A stretch of DNA of 64,000 nt, from contig OX597827.1 of NCBI GenBank assembly GCA_951406725.2, positions 61,504,001-61,568,000 of the forward strand, given 5' to 3'. This DNA is from Octopus vulgaris (Eukaryota). A program made the position numbers and the translations under genes. The notes below the pieces were generated by a model. It made no database searches and was not told the origin of the DNA. It was given only the letters and a program-made list of their open reading frames with translations. Positions 2,147 through 30,017 of the stretch are shown here, piece by piece. The number at the start of each line of letters is the position of its first letter. The stretch's first letter is position 1.

Positions 2147-2545
2147 ATGACTGCATTGGCCAACAACCGTTTACGTTGCCTGCGATCGCTTCTTCAACGT
2201 TCGACATGGACTACGAGACAGCACGTTACCCCTCAGTTCTGCTTCAAACAGTATTCCAGTTCCTTTTTCAGGTTTCGATCGACATTCCGTGAAGAACGAT
2301 CACCACGAAACCTACAGAATATCTTCAAAAGTCTACTTCTTCGACTGGGAGCCGGCAGCGCGGCTGTTTTGCTCGTCGGTAGTTACCTGTACGACGGCGG
2401 GGGTGGCAACAGGCAAACACTATCTACTGTTGCGGAATGCCGGCAACCCCCAGAGCCACAGCGACTCGTGAAGCTACCCACAGCAGAAAAACTTACATTA
2501 GAAGAAGCTATAGTCGTAGCTAAAGACCTCGCCGAATGCAAAAAG
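2147..2545 (+). CDS. LACTB: LACTB exon 1 (mitochondrial targeting presequence plus N-terminus, 133 codons)
   Basis: Arg/Ser/Leu-rich, acid-poor N-terminus followed by hydrophobic AAVLLVGSYLY; donor AAG|GTAAAT at 2546; phase 0 matches exon 2. Confidence 0.88.
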
Positions 2546-8895: not shown

Positions 8896-8962
8896 GCTGA
8901 ATGTAGTGCCCCTGGCTTGGTTATTGCAGTCAGCATTGATGGTGAACTCGTCTGGAGCGAAG
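8896..8962 (+). CDS. LACTB: LACTB exon 2 (AECSAPGLVIAVSIDGELVWSEG)
   Basis: TTTCAG| acceptor and |GTATCT donor; 67 nt, phase 0/1; PG.V..VS.DG..VWSEG motif typical of LACTB. Confidence 0.93.
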
Positions 8963-9617: not shown

Positions 9618-9621
<4 letters not shown>

Positions 9622-9853
9622 TGAAAATACACTTGGAGTCCTTTAGATGGTTCTTTTTTTTAAAAGCTTAACCAGTTTCACCAATTTTTCTGATTTTCAA
9701 AAGATAAGTGAGATACAGTAGAAAGACATGGGGCTATGCCTCAGCCCCACATCTTTCTCTGTCATTTAACCTTTGAAAATCAGAAATATCTGTAAAAGTG
9801 GTTAAGCCCTTAAAAACAAACCATTTAAATGACTCCCAGTGTATTTTCAACTT
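9618..9853. repeat. Imperfect long palindrome next to a (TA)n tract
   Basis: AAGTTGAAAATACACT... pairs with ...AGTGTATTTTCAACTT; central TGGGGCT/AGCCCCA stem. Confidence 0.7.
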
Positions 9854-10058: not shown

Positions 10059-10249
10059 GGTTCGGCTATGCTGACCTGGAGAATCGAATTCCATACACGC
10101 CATCCACCGTGACCAGGATTGCCAGCATCAGTAAATCCATCACCATGGCAGCAGTAGCCAAAATGTGGGAGAACGGACTGCTTGATCTTAACAAACCAGT
10201 CCAGCACTATGTACCATCCTTCCCTGAGAAGGAAGTAGATGGGGAAAAG
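10059..10249 (+). CDS. LACTB: LACTB exon 3 containing the catalytic SxxK motif (RIASISKS)
   Basis: FGYADLENR...RIASISKSITM...YVPSFPEKEVDGEK; TTACAG| and |GTATGT; 191 nt, phase 1/0. Confidence 0.96.
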
Positions 10250-18819: not shown

Positions 18820-18927
18820 GTGACCCTAACTGTCCGTCATTTGCTGTCTCACATGGGTGGTATTCGTCACTACGACAGGACGTATATAGATAAGGATGCT
18901 GATAAAACTAGTAACGATAACTCTAAG
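18820..18927 (+). CDS. LACTB: LACTB exon 4 (VTLTVRHLLSHMGGIRHY...)
   Basis: LLSHxxGIRHY family motif; poly-T TAG| acceptor, AAG|GTGAGG donor; 108 nt, phase 0/0. Confidence 0.96.
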
Positions 18928-20029: not shown

Positions 20030-20110
20030 GATGATTCAAAGAGTACCAATAGCACTGCAACCAAGAACAACAACACTGCCACCAAGAACAACAACACTGC
20101 CACCACCAAT

Positions 20111-20141
<31 letters not shown>

Positions 20142-20300
20142 CTAACAACAACAACAACAACAGCAAGGAACTTGCTAAACTATCTGAATGTTCAAACAAC
20201 AGCGACTACAAAATGGAGGAAATGTATCTGAAAAAGACCTTCAAAAATGTTGACGAATCCCTAATGCTCTTCAAGGATGACCCTCTTGTTCACAAACCAG
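20030..20300 (+). CDS. LACTB: LACTB exon 5 with poly-Asn/Thr low-complexity insert, ending FKDDPLVHKPG
   Basis: TACTAG|GATGAT acceptor in frame with MEEMYLKK...FKDDPL; CAG|GTAATT donor; 271 nt, phase 0/1. Confidence 0.9.
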
Positions 20301-22391: not shown

Positions 22392-23118
22392 GATGGCAAG
22401 CTGGCAGAATTGTTAGCATGTTGGTTGAAATGCTTAGCAGTATTTTGTTTGTCTTTACGTTCTGAGTTCAAATTCCACTGAGGTCAACTTTGCCTTTCAT
22501 CCTTTCGGAGTCAATAAAATAAGTACCAGTTGAACACTGGGGTCAGTGTGATTGACTTATCCCCTTCTCCCAAAATTGTTGTCCTTGTGGCAAAATTTGA
22601 AACCATTATTATTATTATTATTTTTATGGCAAGTAAGGCGGGAAGCTGGCAGAAACGTTAGCACGCCGGACGAAATGCTTAGCGGTATTTCGTCTGCCAC
22701 TACTTTCTGAGTTCAAATTCTGCCAAGGTCGACTTTGCCTTTCATCCATTCGGGGTCAATTAAATAAGTACCAGTTATGCACTGGGGTCAATATAATCGA
22801 CTTAATCCGTTTGTCTATCCTTGTTCATCCCCTCTGTGCTTAGTCCCTTGTGGATAGTAAAGAAATAGGTATTTCGCCTGTCTTCATCTTCTAAGTTCAA
22901 ATGCTGCCAGGGTCGACTTTGCTTTTCATCTTTTCAGGGTCGATAAATTAAGTACCAGTTACACACTGGGGTCGATGTAATTGACTCATCCCCTACCCCC
23001 CCAAAAAAAACTTCAAGCTTTGTGCCTATAATAGAAAGGATTATTACGATGGCAAGCTGGCAGAATTATTAGCACACCACACAAAATGCTTGGCAGCATT
23101 TCTTCTGGTTTTACATTA
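22392..23118 (+). mobile_element. Cluster of ~4 family B SINE units (the last a short head fragment) ending just before LACTB exon 6
   Basis: Repeated GGCAAGCTGGCAGAA...TTCTGAGTTCAAATT...GACTTTGCCTTTCATCC...AAGTACCAGTT. Confidence 0.85.
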
Positions 23119-23143
23119 CTGTTATCATCTGTCATTCATCTAG

Positions 23144-23309
23144 GCAGTAAGTTTCTGTATACAACACACGGCTGGACATTGGTGAGTGCTGTCTTGGAGA
23201 AATCTTCAAATATATCTTTAACGAAGATGATGCCCTCAGTGTTCAGAGACCTCGGACTTCACAACACCTACCTGGACAGGAATAAACCCATCATATATAA
23301 CAGATCCAG
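23144..23309 (+). CDS. LACTB: LACTB exon 6 containing the second active-site motif (FLYTTHGW)
   Basis: SKFLYTTHGWTLVSAVLE...TYLD...IIYNRSR; CTAG| acceptor, AG|GTGAGG donor; 166 nt, phase 1/2. Confidence 0.95.
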
Positions 23310-23747
23310 GTGAGGAGAAATTCTTCCTTATTACTCACTTATTATTATGGAATTTTTATCACTTTTTTTAAAAATCTTCTTTTACTTGTTTCAGTCATTG
23401 GACTGTGGCCATGCTGGGGCACTGCCTTGAAGGGTTTTACTCAAACAAATTGATCCCAGGAGTTATTTTATTTTTTCTTTAGCTTAGTATTTATTCTAGT
23501 GGTCTCTTTTGCCAAATTTGGAGATTACGGGGATGTAAACAAACAAACACTGGTTGTCAAGCAGTGATGGGAAGCAAATGAAACACAAACACAATGACAC
23601 ACACGCACTTAGATATCAACGTATTGGGGGTTTTTTCAGTTTCCTTCTACCAAATCTACTCACAGGGCTTCGGTTAGCCTGGGGCTATAATAGAAGACAC
23701 TTTCCCAGGATCCTGTCATGCAGTGGGACTGAACCCCAAACCACATA

Positions 23748-24190
23748 GTCACTGATCTTGTTAGGAGAAAAACAATTAGTTTTAAATCTCTGAGCAAGAA
23801 ATAAATAGGAACAACACTACAGAGTAAAGTCTATTTTCTAATGTAAAGGGGGAGTCCTGATTGTGATGGTGTTACTACCTTCTTTAGCCCCAGGAAAACA
23901 TCTTTTCCAGCTGGCTATCAATGTGCAACTGTGTCCTGATACTTTGAACAAGGAATACCTGTGAACCAATATCTTCATCGGCACAGGATCACTTTTGGCC
24001 AGAGATGGCAGAACTAGGTCGTGTTCAAGATGGATTTAAAACTAATCATTTTTCTCCTTACAAGATCAGTGACTGTGTGTCACTTTAGAAGTATATACCT
24101 CAAGTGAAGCCTAGTGGTGCCATCTCTAACCAAGGTTTTCCTGTGCCAATGAAGAGAAATGATCCAGAAACTGTTGGTCTGCAGGTACTA
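23748..24190. mobile_element. Rearranged Penelope-like fragment with two inverted-repeat pairs and a core-mutated hammerhead
   Basis: 23748-23790 inverted at 24028-24073; 23972-24018 inverted at 24109-24156; + strand 24140-24185 reads CCTGTG-CCAATGA...GAAA-CTGTTGG-TC-TGCAGG. Confidence 0.55.
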
Positions 24191-24490
24191 TTTAAGGCTG
24201 AGTGAGGACATTAGCTCCCTTGCTCAAGGTGTCACACAAATGGCACCCATGCCAGTGGAATGTAAAAGCACCCATTACACTCTTGGAGTGGTTGGCATTA
24301 GCAAGAGCATCCTGCCGTAGAAACCATGCCAAATCAGACTGGAGTCTGTTGCAGCCGTCCAGCTTGCCAGCCTAGGTCAAACCGTCCAACCCATGCCAGC
24401 ATGGACAATGGATGCTAAATGATGATGATTAATTGTAATAAAAGGAGAAAAATTTAAAGTGTATATCGATTTTTGGCCCACCCTGTATAT

Positions 24491-25525
24491 ACAGGGGTTG
24501 GGCAAAATAATGGAAACACCTTAAAATTTCTAACAGATTTATTTTAGTATGGGGTAGGACTAACTTTGGTAATAATTACAGCTTGAATTCTATGAGGTAT
24601 GGACTCATACAAAGTTGGAATTGTTTCTGAAGGAACTTTTGTCCATTCTTCAGCTAAAACAGTCTCCAGTTCTTGTAGTGACGATGGTGGAGGACATCAA
24701 CTCATTTGTTTTTCTAAAATGCACCATAAATGTTCAATAATTATTTCTTTACTGCCCACAGGGGGCTAAACATAGAGGGGACAAACAAGGACAGACAAAG
24801 GGTTTAAGTCGATTACATTGACCCCAGTGCATAACTGGTACTTATTTAATTGACCCCTAAAGGATGAAAGGCAAAGTCGACCTCGGCAGAATTGAACTCA
24901 GAACGCAACGACAGACGAAATACCGCTAAGCATTTCACCCGGCATGCTAACATTTCTGCCAGCTCACTGCCCTAAATGTTCAATGATATTGAAATCTGGG
25001 AACTGTAGTGGCCAGATAAGATGTTCAACTTCACTAGAATGTTCCTTGTGCCATTCAGCAGCAACTTTAGCTGTGTGAATTGCTGCATTATCATCCTGAA
25101 AGATTGTGTTTCCCTCCAGAAACAGTTCCGCAACCATAGGATGAATTTGAGCAGATAAAATACTTAAATAATTTTGACTATTAATTCTGCCATGAAGGGA
25201 AACCATTGGGCCAGCAGATTTCCAAGATATAGCCCCCCCCCCCTCCCACGATCCATGTTTAACAGTTGGAAGAAGGTAGTCTGGGTCAAATGCTTCTTTT
25301 GGCTATCTTCACGTGTATACTCAGCCGGTGGTCAGAATTAAGGTAAAGGATGACTTGTCTGAGAAAATAACATTCTTCCACTGCTCTAGGGACCAATTCT
25401 GTAGGTTTTTACTCCACTCTAAATGCTTTGCAACGTTTGTTTTTGAAAGTAGTGGTTTTCTGATTGCAGCCATCCCATGAAATCTGGCTTTGTACAGCTC
25501 CCAGTGAACAGTTTTTGTGGAAACA
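24491..25525 (-). mobile_element. Tc1-family transposase pseudogene, interrupted by a family B SINE (24745-24972)
   Basis: RKPLLS...WKNVIFSDKSSF and IFQDDNAAIHTAK...WPLQFPDFNIIEHL DDE motifs; terminal repeat CAGGGGTTGGGCAAAATAATGGAAACAC at 24492. Confidence 0.88.
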
Positions 25526-25707
25526 TATATATATATATATGTATATATATACATATACCAGTGTTGTAGTTTCAGCAATTAGCACACCATGTGACAGCCA
25601 CCACTGTATGCCGCTACTTCTTACACACTTTCTACCTACATACTTTTCTATCTATCTATTATTTCAATCCTGCTTTATACCTGTTTTTATTTATGTATTC
25701 CTCTCAG

Positions 25708-26269
25708 GTTCTACAGTTTTTCAGAGAAAGGACAAGTGGTTAATGCTCCCTACGTTGATAATTCTTACAAATGGTCTGGTGGTGGATTCCTTTCAACTGC
25801 TGAGGACTTGATAAAATTTGGAAATGCCATGCTGTACAGCTTCCAGTTTGATGACTCTGGTGATAGCACATCTCCTTTGAATACAAAAACAGAAGGACAA
25901 GGTGCACAAAACAAGAACAGCAATGAAGCCAGGTTGAAGGGCTATCTGAAGCGCAAAACAATGTTGGATCTATGGAAACCTGTCGAAGGGACCAATACTT
26001 CTGCGGCCCCTAATATTTATTATGGCCTTGGTTGGAGTGTTATTCCTCTCAAACATGAGCATGCTTATTGCTTGAAGAACCGTTTCTGTGCTTTCCATAC
26101 TGGGAATGCTATTGGTTCTAGTAGCATTTTGCTTATGTTACCTCGAGATTCACTGCAGTCAGAGGCTAACCCTCCCAAAGGAGTGGTAGTGGCTGCCATC
26201 TGCAATATTGGTGATGTTAGTTTACGTAAATTGGCCATATCTGTAGCTGATCTGTTTGATCGGGTATAG
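25708..26269 (+). CDS. LACTB: LACTB terminal exon copy A (7a); predicted 587-aa isoform
   Basis: TTCCTCTCAG|G acceptor, phase 2; VDNSYKWSGGGFLST, YGLGW and HTGNAIGSSS motifs; intact to TAG; AATAAA at 26453. Confidence 0.9.
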
Positions 26270-27189
26270 GAGTTTGGTGTTGTTACTGAAAGGACAAATG
26301 AAAGGGAAATCGAAGTCAGGAAGAAAATTTGGAAGAAACAGAGTAAACTTGAAGGAAAGAAAGAAAATCTAAATGAATGAAAAAGTAAATAATTGTAAGA
26401 AAGAAATAATGAACGAAAGGCTGAAAGAAAGAAATTAAAAAAACAACAAAGCAATAAAATTAATAACAAATAAGAACATTTACTTTATTTGATTTTCATT
26501 AAGACCCTGTGCAAGCATGGCTGTGTTGTTAAGAAGTTTGCTTTGCAACTGCATTGGTTTCAGGTTCAGTCCTACTGTAAGTGTCTTTTATTTACTATAA
26601 CCCCGAGTTGACCAAAGCCTTGCGAAAATATCTTTCCAAGGTGCTGCATAGTGAGACTGAACCTGAAACTACATGGTTGCGAAGTGACTTCTTAACCACA
26701 TAACCATATATCTGCATCGAAGGAGTAACGGGATTAAATATCGTTTATTGTTTTATCATAATGTGCTAACGAACGCGATAGAAGAGATGTTTGAATTGGA
26801 CTCGTTATATTATTGGTGCTGGGCTTTGTTTTTATTGTGTCTTCCTCTCTGGCAGCTGGGAAGGGGTCAACATGATAGCCTGATGAAATCTGAATTATCA
26901 TTTTAATGTCCACTTTTCCATGCTTGCTTGGGGCAGATGGAGTTTAGTGAGGCAATACTTGCCTGTTTCTAAGCAAGGTAATATTCCCCCATGGCTAGAT
27001 ATGTTTACACACATTTTTGAAAAAGAATGATGCTAGGAAGGGCATCCAACCGTAGAAACAATGCCAAATCAGACTGGAACCTGGTGCAGCTCTCTCTCTC
27101 TGGCTTATCAGTTCCAGTTAAACCATCCAACCTGTGCCAGCATGGAAAGCAAATGCTAAATGATGATGATGATGATGATGATGATGATA

Positions 27190-27221
<32 letters not shown>

Positions 27222-27223
<2 letters not shown>

Positions 27224-27471
27224 GAAAGAAAAAGGCGTTCAGAATGCTAGATGGTTGTAAAAAAATATATATTTATTTACATGTCACATATTATTTCTTC
27301 ATATTTTTTAGCACTTTCAACTACTCCTGTAGTTTCATCAGAAATATGACGAGACTGCAAGAGTTGTTGAAAGTGCTATAAAAAAATGAAGAAATAATAT
27401 GTGATATGTAAATAAATATATATATATTTTTTTACAACCATCCAGCATTCTGAACGCCTTTTTCTCTCATA
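27222..27471. mobile_element. ~250-bp palindromic Penelope-like fragment between the two LACTB terminal exons
   Basis: AAAAGGCGTTCAGAATGCT... pairs with ...AGCATTCTGAACGCCTTTT; ~115-bp arms; flanked by (TA)n. Confidence 0.75.
27300..27348 (-). ncRNA. Minimal hammerhead ribozyme candidate
   Basis: Minus strand CAUAUUU-CUGAUGA-AACUAC-AGGA-GUAGUU-GAAA-GUGC-UA-AAAAAUAUG: intact core, 6-bp stem II, minimal stem III, weak A/U stem I. Confidence 0.55.
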
Positions 27472-28388
27472 TATATTAAATCTGTACATCACCCCCAATA
27501 CTTCTAACATATATGTACATATATACATATATAACCCATGCTAGCATGAAAAACGGATGTTAAACAATGATGATGAGATATATAAAGAGAGGGATAGACA
27601 GGCAGCTATATATATACATATATCTTTTGGCACTGTGTATCAATTATGATGATAATTAACAATGGATTAAATTACCATTTTCTTCTGAAGATCTGGTGTT
27701 TCAAGTTCATCATGCAATTTCTGCACAACACACTAACACATGTAAAGATTATGTAATTTATGATGTTATAATAAAAAGATAAACTAAATGTCCTGTTTTA
27801 TTCTGTTCTCCTATATATCTATATAGATAGATGTGTATGTATATATATATATACACACCTAGCATTCTTTCAATAGTTAATCTATCTTTCCTTCTATTTG
27901 TCACCCTCCTACCTTCTTAGAACATATTCTGTGCATATCAGGCAACACATATCAAAGATGGTTAATATTGTTTATAGTAATTCTGTTCTTAGTGTATCAA
28001 TTGTTTTTTCCTTTTTTCCAAATCTAATAATACAAATGCAAATTCAACAATAAAGTCAGACTGAAGTTGCTTTATGTTTAGAAATAGCTTAAAGTTTGTA
28101 TGTTTATAGTTATGGCAAAGTGTGAGTTTCAGTGCTATGACAGCAACTACCATGTACCACTACTTATCTGTCTGTTCGTCTATCTATCTATCATCCATCA
28201 GTCTATCTCTACATCTTTGTTTGTCTATTTCAGTCTGTCTGTCTCTCCATCTCTTTGTCTGTTTCTCCATCTATCTATCAATCTATTACCTTTCTATCTT
28301 TCCCTCTATCTTGCTATCTATCCATCCAATTATCTATCTGTCAATCAATCAATCCTGCTTTATACCTGTGTTTATGTATTCCTCTCAG

Positions 28389-28932
28389 GTTCTACAGTGT
28401 CTCAAAGAATGGACAAATGGTTAATGCTCCCTACATTGACAATTCTTACAAGTGGGCTGGTGGTGGATTTCTTTCAACTGCTGAGGACTTGATAAAATTT
28501 GGAAATGCCATGCTGTACAGCTTCCAGTTCGATGATAATGTATCACCTTTGAGTACAAAAACAGGACAAGGTATGCAAAACAAAGAGGAAGCCAGGTTGA
28601 AGGGCTATCTGAAGCGCAAAACAATGTTGGATCTGTGGAAACCTGTTGAAGGGGCCAAAGTCTCTGAAGCTAATGATATTTACTATGGACTTGGGTGGGA
28701 GCTAATTCCTTTCAAACATGAGCATGCTTATTGCTTGAAGAACCGTTTCTATGCTTTCCATACTGGGAATGCTGTTGGTGCTAGTAGCATTTTGCTTATT
28801 TTACCTCGAGATTCACTGCAGTCAGAGACTAACCCTCCCAAAGGAGTGATAGTGACTGCCATCTGCAATATTGGCGAGGTTAGTTTGCGTAAATTGGCCT
28901 TGTCTGTAGCTGATCTGTTTGATCGGGTATAG
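28389..28932 (+). CDS. LACTB: LACTB terminal exon copy B (7b); predicted 581-aa isoform
   Basis: Same TTCCTCTCAG|G acceptor and phase as 7a; IDNSYKWAGGGFLST, YGLGW and HTGNAVGASS motifs; intact to TAG. Confidence 0.9.
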
Positions 28933-28964
28933 GAGTTTGGTGTTGTTACTGACTAACTGAACGA

Positions 28965-29640
28965 AAGACAACGAAAGAGAAATTGAAGTAAAAAAGAAAG
29001 AAAATTTGGAAGAATGAAAGGAAAATTGATGAAGAAATAAAGAAAAATGACAAAGAAAATTTGGAAGAATGAAAGAAAAAATAATAAAGAAAAAGAAAAT
29101 TGATAAAGAAATAAAGAAAAATGATAAAGAAAATTTGGAAGAGTGAAAGAAAAAATGGTGAAGAAATAAAGAAAAATGATAAAGAAAATTTGGAAGAATG
29201 AAAGAAAAAATGATAAAAAAAATTTGGAAGGATGAAAGAAAAAAATGATAAAAAAAATTTGGAAGGATGAAAGAAAAAATAAGGAAATAAAGAAAAATGA
29301 TAAAGAAAATTTGGAAGAATGAAAGAAAAAATGATTAAAGAAATAATGAAAAATGATAAAGAAAATTTGGGAGAATGAAAGAAAAAATAAAGAAATAAAA
29401 AAATGATAAAGAAAATTTGGAAGGATGAAAGAAAAAATGATAAAGAAATAAAGAAAAATGATAAAGAAAATTTGGAAGAATGAAAGAAAAAATAAGGAAG
29501 AAAGAAAATCTAGAAAAAAAATGGAAGAAAACATAAGAAAATTTGACAGAATGACAGAAAAAATAAGAAGAAAGAAATAATAAATGAAAGAAAAAATAAG
29601 AAGAAAGAAATAATAAATGAAAGAAATAAAAACGAAATTA
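28965..29640 (+). repeat. Purine-rich tandem repeat (AAGAAAATTTGGAAGAATGAAAGAAAAAATGAT...) in the 3' UTR of exon 7b
   Basis: More than ten degenerate ~35-50-bp units; a single seed copy is present at ~26320-26340 behind exon 7a. Confidence 0.9.
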
Positions 29641-30017
29641 ATAGTCAAAAAACAATAACAGCATTTGATCTCATTTTCATTAAGAATTATGACCATATTG
29701 TAAATGTGGTGATAGGAGTAAATGTGGTTTATTGTTTTCTTATAATGTAATAACATTGTGGAAGTGATGTTTCAGTTGAATCTTGTTATAATCCTGGTAT
29801 TGATCTTTGTTATATTGTCTTTCTCTGTTGCACCTGAGAAGGGACCAGCATGGTAAACCCTATTGAATTTGAATCACTTTAAAAATTTATTTTTTTAATA
29901 AAGTTAGTCATTCCTGACCAAAGATATTCCAGCTGTGGCCACCCCATCTTAATCTTTTTTTTTGAACATAGTCTATCTAAGACTATATTGTTTAATGTGT
30001 TCTTCCCGTTGCTGTTT

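Follow-up and report, generated by a model that had tools for sequence, protein, structure and literature searches.

The window, the whole stretch of 64,000 nucleotides that was analysed, contains one LACTB gene on the forward strand, in which tblastn with four LACTB proteins locates exons 1 to 6 followed by a last exon that is present twice, as copies 7A (proximal) and 7B (distal) (Table 1). The exon boundaries are all AG/GT, and the joined frames run without an internal stop into proteins of 587 residues when ended by 7A and 581 residues when ended by 7B. By analogy with human LACTB, exon 1 likely encodes the mitochondrial targeting region. A genome-wide search (2.8 Gb; four candidates scored) returned exactly two matches to exon 7, both in the window, and no retrocopy of LACTB; the genome has a single LACTB gene with two intact last-exon copies and no third. 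A public model (P0003, source label Octopus vulgaris), the one member of its protein cluster, is identical letter for letter to the window exons minus exon 4 and is ended by 7B, and the 7A isoform was not found in the protein collection searched.

Table 1. Positions of the LACTB exons and of the features around the two last-exon copies
Feature	Position	Strand	Evidence and remarks
LACTB exon 1	2147..2545	+	tblastn, boundaries; ATG
LACTB exon 2	8896..8962	+	tblastn, AG/GT
LACTB exon 3	10059..10249	+	tblastn, boundaries; carries catalytic SISK
LACTB exon 4	18820..18927	+	tblastn, boundaries; H216/H222/Y223 equivalents
LACTB exon 5	20030..20300	+	tblastn, boundaries; poly-Asn loop
LACTB exon 6, phase 2	23144..23309	+	catalytic YTT, Arg at human H352 position; donor common to 7A and 7B
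Exon 7A coding part, proximal copy, apparently faster-evolving	25708..26269	+	contigs join exon 6 (X1 record 1, X11 record 8)
Divergent island of 7A, codons 92-114	25982..26050	+	human T450-R469 region including W454 and E457 positions
Probable isoform A 3′ UTR, about 1.5 kb	26270..27790 (end approximate)	+	reached by contigs as far as 27045 (X1) and 27785 (X11); in X3 depth falls after 27799
Fold-back repeat, MITE-like, dispersed family, within A UTR	27216..27476	.	−159 kcal/mol, z −25; at least 57 matches
AATAAA, candidate poly(A) signal of isoform A	27770..27775	+	end of contig cover, two studies
Exon 7B coding part, distal copy, apparently conservative	28389..28932	+	sequence present in X3, X11, X15
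A-rich tandem array in B 3′ UTR, many AATAAA	28973..29637	+	sequence
Duplicated 3′ non-coding block	29692..29874	+	homologous to 26703-26895, 26% mismatch

A sequence-only reading of this DNA had described two tandem terminal exons with the same acceptor context and phase 2, each with a full reading frame and a stop, and this arrangement is present as described, with 186 (7A) and 180 (7B) open codons after the split codon followed by TAG. The difference it put at about 29 of 180 residues is 29 of 180 by alignment, with gaps of 3, 1 and 2 codons and 57 differing bases among the 540 aligned in the coding part; the motif differences KWSGGG/KWAGGG, HTGNAIGSSS/HTGNAVGASS and TNTSAAPN/AKVSEAND are all there, and tblastn with the four LACTB proteins found no further LACTB exon between the copies, again as claimed. 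More than about 60 nt before the acceptor, the similarity of the copies does not exceed that of shuffled sequences (score 29 against a maximum of 31). The flanks had been called diverged; the duplicated unit, however, also takes in 3′ UTR, where the two non-coding blocks align with 134 matches and 47 mismatches (score 132 against a shuffled maximum of 43).

The best matches of octopus LACTB are metazoan LACTB proteins (E 2.6e-42 to 7V21), with PF00144 on all top hits listed. The SxxK, YxT/YST and HTG motifs lie in one frame in both models, as SISK at 178, YTT at 351 and HTG at 531 (7A) or 525 (7B), and the L15 filament loop and dimer residues are present. The terminal exon had been called catalytic, which holds for the HTG, K394 and Y460 equivalents, whereas SISK and YTT reside in shared exons. 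Residue lists were taken from the available text of the human LACTB study (PMC9815587), and roles were transferred from the human protein by alignment. Both isoforms retain S164, K167, Y323, HTG, H216, H222, Y223, K394 and Y460 (human numbering); of 12 residues mapped to the active-site region, 11 are identical between them, as are ten dimer-interface residues, eight of which are as in human LACTB. Judged by these residues, both isoforms are likely to be catalytically competent.

Of the 22 listed positions within exon 7, five (W454, E457, Y377, L383 and S527) are not the same in the two isoforms. The earlier suggestion that the copies differ in substrate groove or filament surface is borne out to the extent that these five positions map there, without enrichment compared with the rest of the exon (5/22 versus 24/158 others, p=0.36). 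In human LACTB, W454 lies at the pocket rim and E457 forms a filament salt bridge (PMC9815587). The W454 position is Ala in 7A and Glu in 7B, Argonauta and cuttlefish, and the E457 position, which faces the Arg at the H352 position, is Asn in 7A and Asp in the others. The human H352A variant retains filaments and loses about 60% of its activity, and Y377K loses about 70% (PMC9815587). Furthermore, the R477-D355 bridge is missing in all four cephalopod sequences mapped, and the octopus interface may therefore differ from the human one. Filament formation, intermembrane-space location and D-aspartyl endopeptidase activity are, in the available text of the sources, established for human LACTB only (PMC9815587, PMC12148432). 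Functional tuning of 7A relative to 7B is conceivable on these residues, at a little short of an even chance. Free D-aspartate is abundant in the nervous tissue of octopus, and a link between this pool and the LACTB isoforms would be speculation. The human enzyme prefers D-Asp substrates and cuts after D-Asp (PMC12148432).

In 20 of the 24 listed runs (six studies, three organism labels), 50% or more of the 7A words occur; the remaining four, with next to none of these words, were given no weight either way. Contigs of four runs were compared over 23000-28975: X1 and X3 (organism A), X11 (organism B) and X15 (organism C, DNA-sized). X1, X3 and X11, none of which is recorded as RNA, were taken as RNA by inference, for X1 and X11 because an intron-less contig exists and the genome search gave no retrocopy, and the depths given below come from contigs only and are a poor measure. 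In X1 a single 1717-nt contig (record 1) passes from exon 6 directly into 7A, and in X11 a single 714-nt contig (record 8) does the same. Exon 6 is spliced to 7A, contiguously in two of the three RNA-like runs; the listed break at 23306/25705 is equivalent to 23309/25708, since CAG ends both sides.

For 7B, the joint from 23309 to 28389 is not among the joints listed (327 further joints lie outside that listing). The exon 6 contig of X3 stops 10 letters past the donor, its final eight letters known by position only and not by sequence; 10 is the count of letters common to 7A and 7B, and the intron shares only 2. An end at the very point where 7A and 7B diverge suggests a fork in the assembly graph, with both continuations following exon 6. 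In the same run exon 6 has a depth of 65.2, the 7A-specific sequence 40.8 and the 7B-specific sequence 35, each copy at about ten times the depth of the intron (2.65-4.87 in unique flanking pieces), and the 5′ half of 7B is covered at 91.2 (28400-28599), compared with 2.6-4.2 in the intron preceding it. The 7B-specific sequence is transcribed, and from the fork and the exon-level depth the exon 6-7B junction very probably exists. The alternative use of last exons proposed from sequence is in this way seen directly in contigs for 7A and indicated by an exact graph fork and depth for 7B; the proposed switch is a separate matter, as the similar depths of the two copies in X3, the one well-covered run of the same taxon, fit co-expression equally well.

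We also considered that, in any one genome context, 7A alone might be a real last exon, 7B-type RNA being converted alleles or read-through and 7B a conserved donor. The junction is directly seen for 7A alone, and X1 has no 7B cover, at a depth of only about 3 that was not read as absence. In X11, 7B-type sequence is a 212-nt piece only, a bubble in an otherwise unbranched A path, and depth at 28400-28599 is zero; the piece may stem from a 7A allele that underwent conversion and not from a transcript with 7B. Assemblers remove short bubbles, and the lack of the 7B 5′ half and UTR in X11 was not read as absence because contigs drop variants. The depths in X11 (18.6 for 7B-specific sequence versus 15.1 for 7A) fit a separate B transcript better than a converted allele (expected 25.1 versus 33.7, observed 26.7). 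7B is also the more conserved copy, with no changes between taxa in the 212 nt compared with five for 7A, and it is the copy used by the public model. Together with the X3 fork exactly at the 7A/7B divergence and the depth of the 7B 5′ half, these observations make a gene with 7A as its sole last exon improbable.

Two haplotypes placed in tandem by the assembler, which the sequence-only reading had named as what would undo its claim, are a general risk of assemblies, and nothing further speaks for them here. In the independent, DNA-sized X15, both copies are present with distinct flanks at equal depth (4.6-6.6), 7B being joined to its own upstream flank, although no single contig runs across both; 7A and 7B are present in other labelled taxa. 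Furthermore, the copies differ at 57/540 coding bases and by 26% in the UTR block, far more than the 8 changes in 562 nt that separate 7A of organism B from that of the window. An assembly artefact is, on these grounds, extremely improbable.

AATAAA follows both copies, as had been noted; the first one after 7A (26453), however, is read through by contigs in three of three RNA-like runs. In X3 and X11, contig cover drops beyond about 27790, just past a later AATAAA, and in X15 it continues, which gives a weak hint that this AATAAA is the real poly(A) signal of isoform A. The A UTR is predicted to end some 600 nt short of the 7B acceptor; for the B UTR, contig cover was examined as far as 28975. 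A crude scan (15 shuffles, this sequence alone, without cross-species conservation) found no docking/selector pairing above shuffled background, the duplexes reaching −22.8, −27.4 and −23.7 kcal/mol against shuffled means of −24.1, −25.3 and −22.7, and the top 25 inverted repeats contain no docking/selector pair. Alternative terminal exons are selected by alternative cleavage and polyadenylation (PMC5740500), and as no docking/selector signal rises above shuffles, the choice is likely made by simple competition of polyadenylation with splicing to the distal exon. A T>C difference at 26578 was considered as RNA editing and rejected, the same change being present in DNA-sized X15.

Between 7A and 7B, dS is 0.15-0.18 and dN/dS 0.51-0.67. 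The ratio is a check that the sequence-only reading had proposed; its interval excludes 1 only without transition weighting and reaches it once transitions are weighted, and the overall ratio is weak evidence of selection. A neutral copy stays stop-free in 9-30% of simulations. Disruption of a copy elsewhere had been raised as a further check: the 7A of organism B is without a gap and carries three replacement and five silent changes (neutrality P 0.02-0.04), and 7A looks constrained between taxa, with an omega of about 0.2 that is compatible with a redundant and a functional 7A alike.

The outgroup alignment held 27 of 35 proteins, eight lacking the anchor motif having been dropped; no LACTB of another Octopus species is among the protein matches listed (best 120 of 480, 119 of 119 and best 120 of 2695) or in the cluster. 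Relative to Argonauta, 15 residues are derived in 7A and 4 in 7B (p=0.019), and at sites where both outgroups agree the counts are 10 and 2 (p=0.039); with the cuttlefish-cluster protein alone as outgroup they are 11 and 8, and the asymmetry is not significant (p=0.65). 7A appears to be the faster-evolving copy and 7B to keep the ancestral cephalopod sequence.

The divergence is unevenly spread. Synonymous divergence is patchy, with a pS of 0.43 for codons 92-114 and of 0 for codons 115-167 (permutation p 0.010 and 0.003), and it is lower than the divergence of the UTR block that was copied as well (p 0.01-0.05). In this one sequence pair, the patchy, low silent divergence is suggestive of an older duplication that gene conversion has partly homogenised. 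Replacement changes are clustered, with six in eight codons (permutation p=0.022; p=0.053 for a 20-codon window). In a tree of the island, 7B and Argonauta group together (23 columns, support 88), and in a tree of the remaining exon 7A and 7B do (support 84); this is a comparison of three versus three informative sites, with an island picked post hoc.

These patterns bear on a reading in which both isoforms are made and 7A is redundant, under relaxed constraint and equivalent or slightly impaired, being kept only because a truncated 7A would spoil roughly half of the transcripts. It would accommodate the dN/dS that transition weighting leaves not clearly under 1, the lack of interface enrichment and of a docking/selector signal, and the 7A changes at columns conserved elsewhere (A396S, with Ala in 14 of 15 non-cephalopods, Y482C and A492S); moreover, purifying selection against stops is expected of any spliced exon without a new function. 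The clustering of replacement changes in an island that escaped homogenisation argues against it, and we regard a redundant 7A as rather unlikely, if the most serious of the alternatives.

We consider it reasonably probable that a tandem duplication of the last exon produced a two-isoform LACTB with a choice between polyadenylation and splicing and with 7A tuned at the island. A tandem duplication of about 1.3-1.8 kb would have copied the last coding exon together with its acceptor and 3′ UTR, and exon 6 would be joined to 7A, and likely also to 7B, so that one gene yields two full-length isoforms sharing their N-terminal two-thirds. The choice would likely lie between cleavage and polyadenylation where the long A UTR ends and splicing to 7B, with no RNA docking site. 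7A would have diverged faster, mainly within a single island that maps to the pocket rim and the second polymer interface, and the remainder of exon 7 would likely have been partly homogenised by gene conversion. The 7A isoform is predicted to lack an acidic filament contact (Asp to Asn, human E457) and an acidic rim residue (Glu to Ala, W454), which would make it the same protease in tuned form and not a new enzyme. A stronger form, which we hold to be unlikely, is that 7A has a neofunctionalised C-terminus whose island is kept apart by selection against conversion; the duplication may then predate the Octopus-Argonauta split, and the two subunits, co-expressed and alike in their dimer interface, would assemble into mixed filaments with an activity or D-Asp-peptide specificity set by last-exon choice. 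If true, this would provide a natural pair with which to dissect the filament control of LACTB.

The gene architecture itself is ordinary. Exon duplication has given two enzyme variants per gene in PKM, KHK and ACOX1, through homologous mutually exclusive internal exons, and in insect serpin and GST genes, through alternative 3′ exons, as it would in octopus LACTB. Internal mutually exclusive exons need splicing exclusion, whereas terminal exons use alternative cleavage and polyadenylation. About 10% of animal genes have tandem exon duplicates (as cited in PMC9013439), and tandemly duplicated alternative 3′ cassettes occur in Drosophila pip (pipe) and PGRP-LC (PMC6191721, PMC9013439). As described in these sources, the constant 5′ exons of pip and PGRP-LC are spliced to a single member of a tandem series of homologous 3′ coding cassettes that end separately. 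Octopus LACTB would share this layout, and the product of pip, like LACTB, is an enzyme. The two fly genes have 3-10 cassettes, whereas LACTB has two single-exon copies; their type of competing RNA pairings has no counterpart above shuffled background in LACTB; and the variable part of LACTB, unlike theirs, completes a protease fold and a filament interface. Conversion and concerted evolution have been discussed for the tandem alternative exons of Dscam (PMC3236188), from which LACTB differs in having only two copies, with conversion drawn from one sequence pair. The design of duplicated alternative 3′ exons is already known; among the open-access papers listed, we found no report of a duplicated last exon for any LACTB.

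The protease LACTB is a tumour suppressor; its activity depends on contacts within the filament, and its substrates in vivo are still unsettled (PMC9815587, PMC12148432). A natural isoform pair with an identical catalytic core and differing pocket-rim and polymer-interface residues offers a ready comparison. Human LACTB (PDB 7ULW, 7V1Y/7V1Z/7V21) belongs to the same family, and its SISK, YTT and HTG are kept in both octopus isoforms; it differs in having Trp at W454 and the R477-D355 pair, whereas the cephalopod proteins have Glu at this position (Ala in 7A) and the pair is absent.

LACTB exon 4, which encodes the equivalents of the conserved human residues H216, H222 and Y223, is left out of P0003, the public LACTB protein model labelled Octopus vulgaris; its absence there is likely an annotation error, and possibly a genuine in-frame skip. 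In X11, an RNA-like contig run from organism B (another labelled taxon), the sole sequence of the type of 7B, the second of the two tandem last exons, is a 212-nt bubble in an unbranched 7A path, which could be a converted 7A allele or the result of assembler pruning.

The likely 3′ UTR of isoform A, which ends in 7A, contains a near-perfect 260-nt hairpin belonging to a dispersed fold-back family (at least 57 matches), a candidate double-stranded editing substrate in this isoform only. A further self-complementary stretch (79% over 243 nt, self-BLAST) lies in intron 2.

Positions of the LACTB features in the window
Feature	Position
Intron 2 self-complementary stretch	9618-9853
Exon 4	18820-18927
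Exon 5 repeat	20053-20166
Hairpin	27216-27476
7B-type bubble (X11)	28721-28932

In the octopus protein, the counterpart of the loop through which human LACTB binds membranes contains a long Asn/Thr-rich repeat, encoded in exon 5, and Argonauta LACTB carries a similar expansion.
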